This document shows, piece after piece, positions 22,432 to 63,781 of a stretch of 64,000 bases of DNA. How positions within the stretch are numbered: position 1 is the stretch's first letter; the number at the start of each line of letters is the position of its first letter. Position numbers and translations under genes: made by a program. Location: NCBI GenBank assembly GCA_951406725.2, contig OX597839.1:5332001-5396000 (forward strand). Reading direction: 5' to 3'. Below the pieces are notes generated by a model that saw nothing but the letters and a program-made list of their open reading frames with translations, searched no databases and was not told where the DNA came from. Origin of the DNA: Octopus vulgaris (lineage: Eukaryota).

Positions 22432-22535
22432 GTATATATATTAACCTCTCTGTCTATATATCTACCCTCATGGTAATGTTGGCAAATGAAATAAGTATAA
22501 AAATTTACATTGTTCATTTAATTAAAAAATTCTAT

Positions 22536-22626
22536 ATGTGACTGAAGATTGCTCGACACTTTAAAACTGATGTAATACTTACAGTGTTTAATAAAATGAA
22601 GTAGCATGAAACGATTGTACTACACT
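22536..22626 (+). ncRNA. Degenerate type I hammerhead motif (H2)
   Basis: CTGAAGA-TTGCT…AGCAT-GAAA-CGATTG-TA-ctacac; stem I damaged. Confidence 0.55.
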
Positions 22627-22654
22627 ACCTTGGATTTCCTTCTTCTTATTTGAG

Positions 22655-22746
<92 letters not shown>

Positions 22747-22801
22747 TATATACATATATATATATACATACATACATATATACATATATATACATATATA
22801 C

Positions 22802-22869
<68 letters not shown>

Positions 22870-22871
22870 AT

Positions 22872-23115
22872 GGTGAATAAAATCAAATAAGCAACAGGAT
22901 GTCCAGAGGTGATGCAGTACGACCGTTTCAAGCGGCTCCATTTGATTGAACAATGCAATCATTACATCAATTTAAATGCAGGGCTATCTTCAGCTGCGGA
23001 TAGCCGTGCATTTAAATGATGTAATTATTGCATCAATCATTTAAATGGAGTCGCTTGAAACGGTTTTACTGCATCACCGCTAGATATCCTGTTGCTTATT
23101 TTGACTTTATTCACC
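22872..23115. mobile_element. Family H2 element forming a ~244-bp near-perfect palindrome centred on CAGCTG (22991-22996)
   Basis: ggtgaataaaatcaaataagcaacagga… / …tcctgttgcttattttgactttattcacc; adjacent to (TA)n. Confidence 0.8.
22914..22997 (-). ncRNA. Type I hammerhead ribozyme motif (H2) with long stem II
   Basis: Reverse complement gcag-CTGAAGA-TAGC…GCTT-GAAA-CGGTCG-TA-ctgc. Confidence 0.75.
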
Positions 23116-23379
23116 TTTTTTGAAGTTGTACGGATAATACCGCACTAACTCTTGGTGCTTCAACTTAAGTACCTAATTCATCTGAATCTGAATTATTTTC
23201 CTTATATATTTTTAGGTATATATATCGATAAACTGAGCGTTTTCTCGCGTTCACGTGGTAGAAGGCTCAATATTACTGTCCTAGTATAGAGACTGACGTG
23301 TTGTCCACAAGGTTGTGGCTTTCGCAGCACTTTTGGTAAGTCTATGACCAGAATTTAACTTTTTGTTTCATAATTACTG

Positions 23380-26967: not shown

Positions 26968-27520
26968 GGATAAAATCTACACCACCACCGCTCGACAACC
27001 GCTGTTGGCGTATTTACGTCCCCGTAATTTTGAGAAGTACCAGGCTTTAAAAGATAAGTCCTGTGGTTGATTTGTTCGACTGAAACCCTCCCGGGTAGTG
27101 CCCCAGCATGGCCGCAGTCAAAAATGACTGAAACAGATTTAAGATAAAATATCAATTCCACTGACGTAAGTAAGTTGATGTAGAAGATTTTCAAAACTCG
27201 ATTAGGATAAACGCTGGAGCATTGCCAGAGTACTCTCCCTTGATAATGTACTCTCCTTTTGAAGATAGTCAATAAACATTTTGGCATTCCAAACAACTGA
27301 GGCCATCTTTGTCCCTGCGAATGAAAAGGCATTCGCCTTATTTGGAGCAGCTGAAGAGGGGTGTTTCCAAAGAATGGATTTTGTCTTTGTTTCTGGCTCA
27401 AAGTGATGGCTTAGGAAATACTTAAAGGGTATTTCCTACTGGCTTAGGAAATACTCAAAGAAGCCAACTGGATATCCCAGAAATAATGTCAGATTTTCTC
27501 GCAGTATAACCAACCTAACC

Positions 27521-33931: not shown

Positions 33932-34998
33932 TCTATGTTTGACTTTTGCTTTATGTCTGTACAAGTTGGCTCCAAGTCTCACCCAGAGACCTCAAGAGAC
34001 AACAGGTTGGAAGTTCTGTGCCATATATTTGGGGGTTTTTTTTTGGGGGGGGGGGTGTTGTACTAGTGAATGTCTAATACATAAAAAAAAAATTTTTAAA
34101 TAAATAAATAAAAAAATAAAAAGAAATTAAATAAAAAAAAATTTGTTTTAAACCTTGGGATTACATAGAGAGTATTTTGCGTAGGATATGAGCAGTTCCC
34201 ATGAGCACTATCTTTTGAATTTCTGCCATTTTGGGGTTTCCTGGTATCTGAGTTAGGTAGCAATCAGTCCCTTTCGCTATCATTCCCAGGACACCTATGA
34301 CAACAGGTATTGTTTTAGTCTTCAGCTTCCACATTTTGCTGATCTTTATATTTCAAGATCTTTATATTTGCTCAGTTTTTGGTAGGTCTTGACAGATACG
34401 TTTATATCGATTGGGACAGTCATATCAATGAGGAGGCATGTTCTTTGTCTGAAGTCTTTCAATATGATGTCTGGCCTATTTGCATCTATCTTCCTGTCAG
34501 TTTTAATGGTGAAGTTCCAGAGGAGTGAGATGTGGTCATTTTCAAGCACTGGAGGTGGATTGTGTCCCCACCAGTTTTTTTCATGGGGCAAATCCAGGTT
34601 TTTGCAAATTACCCAGTGAATATATTGTGCAGCTCTATCATGCCTGTTGAGGTACTCTGTAGGCGCTAGAAGACTGCATTTGGAGACAACATGATCAATG
34701 GTTTCATTTTGTTGTCGGCATACACGACATGTTGGGCTACTGCCGTTCTTTAATATGTTGGCCTGGTAGTTTCTTGTTGGTAGGCATTGATCTTGAACTG
34801 CTATGATAAACCCCTCTGCTTCAGATTTTAAGCCATATGCCATTAGCCATCGATGGGTCAGGGCTTTGTCAATATCTGCATTATTCGCTCTCTTTGGGTA
34901 TTTGCCATAGAGAGGTTTTTCTTGCCATTTATTATTCAGAATAACTAAGGCCGCAGTTTTGGCACGGGTTTTCATGCGCCTAGCTTTTTCTGTGCTTG

Positions 34999-35000
<2 letters not shown>
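33932..35000 (-). mobile_element. R4/Dong-clade non-LTR retrotransposon, 5'-truncated, inserted in (TAA)n
   Basis: CCHC knuckle CRVC…ETIDHVVSKC, RHD motif and restriction-like endonuclease RPDII…IDMTVP…KLSKY; (TAA)n on both flanks, the known Dong target. Confidence 0.92.
34161..34999 (-). pseudogene. Dong-like ORF C-terminal fragment (zinc knuckle plus RLE endonuclease), in-frame stop at 34346-34348
   Basis: The frame continues past the stop: ISKMWKLKTKTIPVVIGVLGMIAKG…ILRKILSM*; RT domain absent. Confidence 0.88.
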
Positions 35001-36386: not shown

Positions 36387-36775
36387 GGTACAAAAATTCA
36401 GGGTGAATACTTGATAACTGTAAGCACCTGTATATGCCAGTTAGTGGTGTAGGTGATAGGGTATATTTATCAAAAGAAAAACAGGATGCAAAGGATTTAG
36501 CGGTACATATGTTTCTGGCTTTATTGGACAGTTTACATCAATTATGCATTGATATAAACTGTCCAATAAAGCCAGAAACATATGTACCGCTAAATCCTTT
36601 GCATCCTGTGTGTCTTTTGATATATATATATATATATACATATACATATGTATATATATATGTATATGCTGATGTGTTTACGTCCCTGTACCTTAGCAAT
36701 TCGGTGAACAGACCAATGGAGTAAGTACTAAACTTAAAATGAACAAGTCCTGTGATCGACTTGTTCGACAAGAAC
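36135..36775 (+). mobile_element. Old SINE family A copy whose internal microsatellite hosts a palindromic insert
   Basis: Head at 36135-36296, 3' half resumes at about 36665. Confidence 0.7.
36468..36622. repeat. Near-perfect palindrome (~75-bp arms, 5-nt loop) containing a hammerhead 3' half
   Basis: acaggatgcaaaggatttagcggtacatatgtttctggc… / …gccaGAAACATATGTAccgctaaatcctttgcatcctgt. Confidence 0.9.
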
Positions 36776-46206: not shown

Positions 46207-47095
46207 CGTGGTCTGATCAATAAATATCCGGACTGTTGCCATAGTAACGAATCTAAAGCACGTAGAGTAAAGCCGCTTGGCAAAGATTGACCGTGGAATC
46301 TGTTGTGCACTCGCACTGGGATTTACCGTTCTAGGCCACTTCTACTGTTTACAGCAATGCTTGGAATGAAGGTATGTAGCATGTGATCGTAGCATTGACT
46401 ATGACAAGAGAAAGTTTTAATGGTGATACCTGCTTAGAGGCCTACGCAAAGTTGCAGAAAGTGTATGGAGAGGAGTGTATGAGCCGCACACAATTGTACG
46501 TGTGTTTCAAAAGTTTTCCTGATATCCGAAAAAATGTCGATATTAATCAATGTTCTGAGACAACCGCAACCAGCAGTACTGAGAAAAACATCGCAGATGT
46601 GCTTGCAGCTGTGAGGGGAAATCGTCGAATCACCATCCGTGAGTTATCAGGAGGTGTTGCAGATTAGTTGGGTTCAGTTCAGTCCATTATAACTAAAGAT
46701 TTGGGTATGAGACGCATGTCTGCTAAGTTTGTGCCAAGACTCCTTTCAGCTGAGCAAAAAGACACTCGAGTTCCAGGTGTACAAGATTGTGTCCAGATCG
46801 ATGAAAATACTTTTTAAAAACTTTGCGTAGGTCTCTGAGCCGGTATCTCGAAGCTTTTGGCAAAGTTTGATGAAGATTTCCTGCTCAACATTCTCTGTCA
46901 TGGTCAATGCGACGATCACACGCTACACACCTTCCTTCCAAGCACTGCCGTGAATAGCAGAAGAGGGATAGAGCGTTAAAACTTAGTGCGCATGCACAGC
47001 AGAGTTCAAGATCAATCTATGCCAAGTGACTTCACTCTGCATGCCTTAGCTTTGTTACTATGGCTACAGTCCATATACTTATTGATCAGACCTCA
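46207..47095 (+). mobile_element. Mariner deletion derivative with ~210-bp terminal inverted repeats and TA TSD
   Basis: TA|cgtggtctgatcaataaatat … atacttattgatcagacctca|TA; internal HTH remnant AYAKLQKVYGEECMSR…NRRITIRELS and DLGMRRMSAKFVPRLLS. Confidence 0.9.
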
Positions 47096-51056: not shown

Positions 51057-51331
51057 GTAAAGTATACTAGCCATCTCAATATGGCTAACCACTAAGGATG
51101 GGTTTTACTGTAGCTTTTAGCCCCAGGAGATCATCGTCTCCAGCTGGCTTTAGGCACACTTTCTGTGCCTTTATGATATTTGCAAAGGGAGGTCATCCCT
51201 CTCTCGTAAACCTAAGTGATACGCACTTAGCTGACTAAAGCCAGCTGGAGACGATGATCTCCTGGGGCTAAAAGCTACAGTAACACCCACCCTTAGTGGT
51301 TAGCCATTTTGAGATGGCTAGTATACTTTAC
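51057..51331. repeat. Foldback element with ~97-bp inverted arms and a hairpin-rich spacer
   Basis: Arms 51057-51153 / 51235-51331, nearly perfect; adjacent to (TA)n. Confidence 0.9.
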
Positions 51332-53504: not shown

Positions 53505-54194
53505 GTATGTGTGTATGTATGTATGTGTGTATGTATGTATGTATGTATGTGTGTGTGTATGTATGTATGTGTGTATGTATGTATGTGTGTATGTATGTAT
53601 GTATGTATGTATGTGTGTATGTATGTATGTATGCATGTATGTATGTATGTATGTATGTATGTATGTATGTGTATATGTATGTATGTATGTATGTGTGCAT
53701 GTATGTATGTATGTATACACACACAAACGAACACACGTATAACTGAATGCTTGAATAAACTTGCATTTATGTAATAGGTGCACCTGTTAATTCTCTTTAC
53801 GCATGTGTATACAGCATATGAATATATATGTCACTGCGTATATATGTTCCCTCCCGGAAGACGAAACGGAAAATTATTGGAATACTTCATTGTAAAACTA
53901 ATCATTAAACCAAATAATGATTCACATTGTACGGACGCAAGTCAGTTTGTTTTATACTTTCTCGAGTAAATTCGTGATTGAGAAGCTATAGCCAGGATAC
54001 AAGAGCCGCACATTCCGCATAATTAATTGAAATTTGTGCTCTTTTCCTCAACTGTAGACAAGGCATTTCCATCTGCTTGGCAGCTATACAAAGAATACAG
54101 AGATTTGAAGGCGATGAGCTGACAGAAACGTTAGCACGTCGGGCAAAATAAGGTGATTAAAATCAAAATAAGCAACAAGGATATCCAGAGGTAA

Positions 54195-54286
54195 TGCAGT
54201 ACGATCGTTTCATGCAACTCCATTTAAATGAGCAATGCAATCATTTCATTACATCAATTTAAAATGTAGAGCAATCTTCAGCTGCA
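54195..54286 (-). ncRNA. Type I hammerhead ribozyme motif (H2), in element ~54151-54310
   Basis: Reverse complement tgcag-CTGAAGA-TTGC…GCAT-GAAA-CGATCG-TA-ctgca; palindromic stem III. Confidence 0.8.
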
Positions 54287-54704
54287 CAAAGACATAGAAT
54301 TTAATTAAATTAGAAGGACCGGCCTTGTCACTTGTTTACATTTGCATAATTTTACCTAAAATCGCCAAGAGGATAAGGAGATAGATAAAGAACATTTTTT
54401 ACCAACAACATCATAGTTGTAACTGAAATTGTTTTCAAGAAGACACTGCCTATCACTGATTTTTCTAATATTTAAATTTATTATGGGATCAGTTTTAATT
54501 TATAGATCAGTTTATCAAATCCTACGTTTATATATTTGTTATGCAAGATTTTTTTTTTATGTGAAGTAGTGTGTTGAAACAGATATTGTTATATTTCGGA
54601 ATGGTCATTTTGCCAGTTTAGTCAATAAAAACACACGCACTATATATTTGGTGTTATTTTGCTTCGGTCTTATTTATTTTTTACATTAATCTTAATCTTA
54701 TTTC

Positions 54705-63556: not shown

Positions 63557-63738
63557 TATATAATATTAATTCGAGACAAAACCACTATTTTGCAAATCAA
63601 ACAAGGAAAGACTTAATCAATACATAAAAAATTTATTTATTTATTTATTTATTTATTTTATATTAAAATTTTTTTATGTATTGATTAAGTCTTTCCTTGT
63701 TTGATTTGCAAAATAGTGGTTTTGTCTCGAATTAATAT

Positions 63739-63743
<5 letters not shown>
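63557..63743. repeat. Inverted repeat with ~77-bp essentially perfect arms beside (TA)n
   Basis: taatattaattcgagacaaaaccactattttgc… / …gcaaaatagtggttttgtctcgaattaatatta. Confidence 0.9.

Positions 63744-63781
<38 letters not shown>

Follow-up and report, generated by a model that had tools for sequence, protein, structure and literature searches.

The Hydra clade of Penelope-like elements (PLEs) is defined by the motifs RWK, DKT, CxCX5C and CxxC/CxH, and the parts of its description used here (Craig et al. 2021, PMC8557442) report (TA)n targets, a hammerhead in sense orientation at the 3′ end, a two-armed layout with a 5′-truncated inverted partner and, in a table, an octopus member, Hydra-1_Obim. 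By our own count in File S2 of that paper, 14 of 25 listed Hydra families have a U after the core CUGANGA and a U before GAA, often followed by the pairs UGC/GCA. The minimal type I hammerheads of metazoan PLEs, in the portions of Cervera and de la Pena (2014, PMC4209133) drawn on, have a short stem I and a palindromic stem III region (dimer type), and occur as opposite-strand pairs 100–700 bp apart and as many single truncated copies; evidence for their cleavage in vivo is stated there to be absent. PAc, a Poseidon element of Anolis belonging to another clade, has its hammerhead at the border between pLTR and ORF and a tail bounded by two fixed RT starts; both target strands are cut and extended, cleavage was not needed in vitro and, in the sections concerned, no RNA-seq reads ended at the hammerhead cut (Frangieh et al. 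2024, PMC11167929). A natural U10.1-U11.1 hammerhead, whose stem II opens with the U·U mismatch, was reported by Perreault et al. (2011, PMC3088659) and called the most active mispair; it is a rare variant, presented in the passages used here without a retrotransposon family or a long stem II. Animal non-LTR retrozymes, as far as the part of the preprint used here describes them (Li et al. 2026, bioRxiv 10.64898/2026.07.22.740005), carry a type I hammerhead of PLE ancestry in tandem units of 170–400 nt.

We analysed a window of 64,000 nucleotides of Octopus vulgaris (contig OX597839.1, positions 5,332,001–5,396,000) that holds three hammerhead loci of one family. The octopus element shares with the Hydra clade all of the features named above, including the two U residues. 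It differs in its unit of ~4.65 kb (<3 kb in the Hydra clade), its stem III of the form AC-NNNN-GU, its tail of ~90–110 nt (30–40 bp for PLEs in general) and its stem II domain of 57–63 nt, which on sequence is a variant longer than in any Hydra hammerhead listed in the material used (~10–26 nt; PMC8557442). The short stem I, dimer-type stem III and opposite-strand pairs of metazoan PLE hammerheads recur here, but the consensus given in PMC4209133 has G10.1-C11.1, an extra base after A9 and a helix II of 7–8 bp. The position of the hammerhead and the two fixed points bounding the tail are as in PAc, whose two-strand priming fits the octopus layout; in contrast to PAc, insertion ends pile at the cut. 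Most copies are dispersed, variably truncated ends of a coding element, unlike the tandem units of retrozymes. The layout and the U·U pair are already in print and the long stem II is a variant; the new point is the footprint of arm ends at the predicted cut, and we found no paper in the open-access literature that reads hammerhead cleavage from insertion ends. We consider it about 75% probable that a Hydra-clade element inserted its hammerhead-bearing 3′ end here in two arms, now decayed, to give the palindrome at 22872–23115, the arms being made from two cDNAs joined at CAGCTG, and that a few percent of the templates in the family were cut RNAs.

The palindrome, its hammerheads and other features of the window

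The palindrome at 22872–23115 has two arms of 122 nt that are identical in 105 of 123 aligned columns, about a centre CAGCTG at 22991–22996, as the initial annotation of a 244-bp palindrome had it. The right stop at 23115 does not stand: the right arm continues through a constant ‘tail’ (23116–23203, + strand), bounded by two fixed end points and present on one arm only, to ~23203, making the whole insertion (22872–23203) asymmetric. The inverted, tail-less arm (22872–22996, − strand) is a 5′-truncated subfamily A pLTR/3′ end spanning about −3 to +121 from core C3 (L031: i = −4, m = 120), and the direct, tail-bearing arm (22991–23203, + strand), also 5′-truncated, spans −3 to ~+210 (L031: j = −3, n = 212). 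The CAGCTG common to both is the element's own palindrome, formed by the stem I 5′ strand CAG and C3U4G5, and we read it as junction microhomology. The insertion site is a (TA)n-rich microsatellite (22650–22871), a context found at most copies, and TA-rich sequence also lies directly beyond 23203. A sequencing fold-back artefact is excluded, because the arms differ by 15%. The locus has no ORF and tblastn of the window gave no match; it is an old, decayed stub of a Hydra-clade element, neutral and ordinary debris.

The minus arm carries a type I hammerhead (22914–22997, − strand) with an intact core CUGAAGA (22993–22987), U10.1 at 22986, a stem II domain of 57 nt, U11.1 at 22930, GAAA at 22929–22926, stem III ACGGUCGU and a 4-bp stem I; the predicted cut falls between 22918 and 22917. 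A ribozyme copy on each strand had been proposed, the plus-strand core having decayed to CTGCGGA, and this holds; the commonest core in subfamily A, however, is CUGAGGA (G at N7 in 43 of 52), so that CTGCGGA is one change (A6C) away and the CUGAAGA of the minus arm is a minor variant. The plus-strand copy (22994–23073) additionally lacks G16.2 (G16.2U), differs from the subfamily majority in 13 per 100 columns and is predicted to be inactive, A6C being a low-activity change in the part of Perreault et al. (2011, PMC3088659) used here. The inverted arm has 3 differences per 100 columns, though we do not take 3 against 13 as a real contrast, since with clustered change counted once the figures are ~3 and 9–10 events. 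A cluster of changes at 23028–23045 makes the stem II hairpin of the plus arm more perfect and resembles one local template-switch event.

The other two loci belong to other subfamilies. A subfamily B copy at 22482–22659 (+ strand; 92% to L097) has its core at 22542, the U·U pair, a 59-nt stem II and a damaged stem I. A subfamily C copy at 54149–54503 (− strand; L001) has its core at 54281, the U·U pair, a 63-nt stem II, ACGAUCGU and the stem I UGCAG/CUGCA; its tail is missing and a different repeat adjoins at 54108–54149. The three (A, B and C) are 74–84% alike. The description given of them earlier was accurate for all: a U follows CUGANGA and a U precedes GAAA, the next pairs covary (AGC/GCU at 22993 (−), UGC/GCA at 22542 (+) and 54281 (−)), and the stem II domain is long (57, 56, 59 and 63 nt in the window copies). 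An Rfam scan of the window gave no hammerhead among the best 150 of 381 matches, nearly all of them microsatellite or miRNA noise.

Folded as RNA, the palindrome is predicted to form a hairpin of −159.1 kcal/mol (z −25) with 108 pairs on the plus strand and 106 on the minus strand. The initial annotation supposed a dsRNA of ~120 bp that masks the ribozyme; in the predicted fold the ~108-bp hairpin of a read-through transcript would cover both motifs. Contigs from four RNA runs represent paralogues only, none crossing the junction at 22991–22996. The formation of such a hairpin would suit a functional source of dsRNA, an ADAR or Dicer substrate maintained by the host, but about half of the sampled copies in the genome (41/77) have a similar partner, the arms here have drifted 15% apart, and no host-gene domain occurs in the 71 of 102 screened window frames that were scanned, which gave only weak transposase matches and noise. 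We regard such a function as extremely improbable.

Three further palindromes in the window, at 36462–36628, 51057–51331 and 63557–63744, are of unrelated sequence, have arms 82–92% identical and each end at a TA run; a core scan of the three found no hammerhead, and they are probably the two-armed footprint of other Penelope-type families. Other CUGANGA...GAAA motifs occur in two interspersed repeats at 921 (−), 558 (+) and 12462 (−), the latter two being one family. A 217-aa frame at 34349–34999 (−) with a zf-RVT match (E 5e-5) is the C-terminal piece of a LINE-type element. Weak mariner-type transposase matches (Transposase_1, HTH_48) lie at 27205–27435 (−) and 46380–46664 (+), the second within inverted ends at 46210–47092.

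The element family and its hammerhead variants

Searches of the octopus genome (2.8 Gb, rich in microsatellites) gave 625 and 2694 first-look family candidates. Exact-core matches with U·U number 2866, against 0 for a reversed-pattern control, and a further 2230 matches have another base at 10.1. The copies have a common constant 3′ end, variable 5′ truncation and (TA)n surroundings. Decayed RT genes are joined to family arms at L061, L097 and L099–L102, and a search with one decayed RT-linked piece recovered many long open frames. Intact frames occur in the sister subfamilies D and E (L085, 976 aa; L089, 1091 aa), each followed, beyond the 3′ UTR, by a related sense-oriented hammerhead, and L085 has another just upstream of the ORF. 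RT and a C-terminal endonuclease of the GIY-YIG type share a single ORF, intact in D and E and decayed at A-, B- and C-linked loci.

The motifs of L085 and L089 are IRWKT/IRWRT (RWK/RWR), LVPADKTGN (DKT), the linker CKCRIKSKC (CxCX5C), CQLCSME (CxxC..E) and N..CVH (N..CxH). Further Hydra-clade traits are the (TA)n flanks, a sense hammerhead in the pLTR, partial tandems, an inverted 5′-truncated partner and a tail at one end. Pfam and PDB searches with the intact ORFs gave no family match, and we therefore assign the element to the Hydra clade by its motifs rather than by a tree that includes published Hydra sequences. The CX2-5CxxC linker is absent from the intact L085 and L089 frames, which ruled out our first guess, the Neptune clade; no CCHH motif was seen when the intact frames were read by eye. 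A non-LTR retrozyme was also rejected, as copies are single or head-to-head and upstream run into the 3′ UTR and ORF instead of forming tandem non-coding units. A hammerhead antisense to the ORF, which L021 seemed to present, proved to be the inverted partner, intact elements carrying the ribozyme in sense.

The young D and E loci (L085, L086, L087, L093, L094, L089 and L090) have intact frames of 976–1091 aa, long Asn-rich inserts and near-identical copies, and include tandem and inverted arrangements; from their sequences, these subfamilies were probably active recently. Beside one Hydra element lies a second, Penelope/Poseidon-like RT frame of 565 aa (L091:192–1886). Head-to-head hammerhead pairs of another family, in which stem II opens with a G and its domain spans 45–50 nt, are seen at L093:8371–8555 and L101:7843–8008.

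The sequence agrees with the type I hammerhead in its core (CUGANGA, GAAA, UH) and its stems I–III; the core columns are 97–98% modal, compared with 93–96% overall. Among 12 real copies drawn from all subfamilies, both sides have changed in 13 of 27 pairs, a number reached in 0 of 500 shuffles and compared with 2–7 in slid controls. The stem II pairs have an advantage in this test, having been predicted from that alignment. Covariation in stem I takes the forms UGCAG/CUGCA, UGUGG/CUACA, UUUAG/CUAAA and UUCGG/CCGAG, and stem III has two pairs and a near-palindromic loop, of the dimer type. The hammerhead has a U·U pair, a long stem II and a 2-bp stem III, and dimers of it are predicted to cleave after GUA.

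Both U residues (10.1 and 11.1) are kept in 51/52 segments of subfamily A, 41/41 of C and 3/3 of B, counted among best BLAST matches and hence biased to intact copies, so that the conservation proposed for them is confirmed in these three. A canonical G10.1-C11.1 pair, which the family had been taken to lack, is indeed absent from the consensus of A, B, C and G (all U·U), but F and E have G-C and D has G·U. Nor is the U·U pair atypical, as had been claimed, given the published natural example and the 14 of 25 listed Hydra families. A tree of 68 of 174 hammerhead segments, built on 121 columns and with many open forks, is ladder-like, running from A, C, B and G (all U·U) through F2 and F1 (G-C) and a few side copies with U·U to D (G·U) and then E (G-C). 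Subfamily A has the longest terminal branches and E the shortest, and in an RT tree restricted to this genome (13 rows and an outside family) A and C fall outside a supported B+D+E clade (97/97); for both reasons U·U probably predates G-C.

Junctions between the arms and the origin of the insertion

An adjacent inverted arm was found in 41 of 77 sampled copies (90 loci minus 13 duplicates). Five with a partner derived from elsewhere in the element were excluded, which left 36 mapped junctions, four of their start values being taken from a separate analysis; the subfamily E rows in this mapping are mostly microsatellite noise. In 30 of the 36 the inverted arm has its outer end at +98 to +125, and in 21 of 26 head-to-head pairs the arms diverge at +108 to +124, the tail being on one arm. 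Across the family we thus observe an inverted tail-less arm beside a direct tail-bearing one, a TA context, a hammerhead linked to RT and endonuclease, two fixed ends and scattered junctions. A pile of 5′ ends near −120 to −130, considered as a transcription start, is partly an artefact of subfamily differences from the references. At the 5′ side the tail-less arm extends further than the tail-bearing arm at 14 of 36 junctions, less far at 17 and equally, within 5 nt, at 5. Near-symmetric junctions (within 20 nt) number 15/36 where 6.2 are expected, a figure reached in 0 of 20000 permutations. The arms are therefore coupled, and there may be some fold-back component.

The initial annotation placed palindrome centres at the junction of stem I and core. 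This does not hold for the family: junctions centred on CAGCTG were found at 2 loci genome-wide (with at most one mismatch) and at 1 of 36 mapped junctions, namely the window locus itself.

Our reading of the insertion takes its mechanism from the end positions of the arms. Two cDNAs would be primed by the enzyme of the element at a cut in the TA repeat, from both of its sides, and the ends of the cDNAs would be joined through the element's own CAGCTG by putative microhomology. The two fixed ends would correspond to two internal RT start sites, by analogy with the anole element, for which such sites were demonstrated in vitro, and coupling of the arms would be explained by both cDNAs extending to one and the same end of the RNA. 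For a few percent of insertions the templates were probably ribozyme-cut RNAs, with arms beginning at the cut bond.

Fold-back during reverse transcription had been suggested for the window locus. An origin by retrotransposition is most likely, but simple fold-back of one cDNA cannot explain the family, because at 14 of 36 junctions the two arms are not nested. A broader form, in which one cDNA folds and copies itself, either unaided or prior to encountering a second, short cDNA that was primed from the opposite end, would account for the 15 near-symmetric junctions; a hairpin-like form looped by AGTAC or GTAC is common to 7 of 11 near-symmetric D junctions, the geometry of a snap-back is seen at the recurrent D junction, and L323 reads as the fold-back of a cDNA ending at the cut. 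The longer 5′ end of the tail-less arm at the 14 junctions refutes the pure form, and at the recurrent D junction the tail is on the long arm at 4 loci but on the short arm at 3. At the window locus a zero-spacer centre on a 6-bp palindrome would also leave the snap-back without a loop, and we judge this origin unlikely. Still less probable is the loss of a spacer once present between two CAGCTG hexamers, which, because the hexamer is palindromic, form a direct repeat whose collapse would leave a zero-spacer palindrome. In its favour, the locus is old, with arms ~15% apart, and most junctions are asymmetric or contain filler; if easy, however, such a collapse should be commoner than 2 loci genome-wide, and tight junctions are already present in young D and E insertions.

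Arm ends at the predicted cleavage site

Among tail-selected copies, 5′ ends are heaped just behind the predicted cut in 9 of 29 for subfamily A and 11 of 30 for C, against 0 of 30 for D. A genome-wide end count was based on 2024 arms that match the 22 bases directly after the cut. At position 0, 106 arms have a base other than A before the cut; 13 of 30 inspected were flagged as truncations and 11 remained after curation, which removed one internal deletion and one doubtful row, giving ~39 arms. Position +1 gave 8/30 of 161 (~43) and position −1 gave 8/30 of 80 (~21), the latter as would arise when some ends at 0 happen to follow an A. Control positions, hand-curated in the same way, gave 1/27 at −4 (all rows inspected), 1–2/30 of 118 at +2 (~4–8) and 3/30 of 58 at +5 (~6; the pattern leaves out A); the count covers these control positions together with −1, 0 and +1. 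Fisher tests on the curated rows gave p values of 0.003, 0.01 and 0.03. Partners were read by eye: for arms starting at the cut, the partner also starts downstream in 9 of 11, far upstream in 1 and is complex in 1, and for arms starting at +1 it starts downstream in 7 of 8. Of 213 tail-pattern matches, the first 90 (one of them read twice) served as an unbiased sample, in which 17 ends fall within 0 to +20 and 7 within −1 to −21. Against the peak, only 1 of them is at 0 and 1 at +1; this is a modest step, in line with a few percent.

Junction centres point to the same place. Zero-spacer palindromes centred on TGCA at +1 to +4, one base behind the cut, occur at 27 loci, compared with 1 locus (at most one mismatch) for a control TGCA in stem II, whose own control also gave 1, and 2 for CAGCTG. 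The hotspot of palindrome centres is the predicted cut and not, as supposed, the stem I/core junction.

The footprint is not seen in every subfamily, which counts against reading it as cleavage. In subfamily D no arm is truncated at the cut, the single match there being a point change, and at −5 it has 11 of 12 non-matching rows, mostly one recurrent junction; its weak stem I could explain the blank. Subfamily E has the textbook G-C pair and looks like the best ribozyme, yet its peak is not clear: 4 ends at the cut among an estimated 690 copies (from 31 of the first 100 rows of 2230 matches), near background.

The likeliest reading of the excess of arm starts at the predicted bond, and one we hold with somewhat more than even confidence from the end positions, is cleavage in vivo by the U·U ribozyme. 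The main rival is pausing of RT at the GC-rich stem I together with joining at TGCA, and no cleavage, which we consider possible though doubtful. It gains from the distribution of the peak, which appears in the subfamilies with TGCA in the 3′ strand of stem I (C and A), is absent in D and not clear in E, and from D having a hotspot of its own in which one arm starts 4–5 bases upstream of the cut. If RT stalled at the foot of stem I, however, ends would be expected near +5, where there are ~6, and not at 0 and +1, where there are ~39 and ~43; the same ATGCAT centre in stem II was used once as against 27 times; and in 9 of 11 arms starting at the cut the partner too begins downstream of it.

With cleavage as the preferred reading, the genome may hold a fossil record of hammerhead cutting, a proposal we hold with a little better than even odds: ~5% of arms in subfamily C (U·U) start within one base of the scissile bond, their partner usually falling short of it too, both copied from cut RNA, and the 57–63-nt stem II was kept while U·U gave way to G-C and G·U as its closing pair, the younger forms being without the mark. 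The footprint suggests activity of the long-stem U·U variant and continued use of cut RNA as a template, and makes the open question of cleavage in vivo testable. Ends piled at the scissile bond offer an inexpensive assay, needing genome sequence only, for any PLE-rich assembly; if the reading is true, cleavage can be compared across subfamilies from genome sequence alone, and the subfamily ladder (U·U, G-C, G·U) offers a natural mutational series for the bench.

In subfamily D, five independent insertions (G000:C2:54218281, C2:58148743, C5:6145768, C5:57623385 and C9:44562190) have one and the same junction letter for letter, lying 2–5 bases around the predicted cut; either arm may carry the tail.
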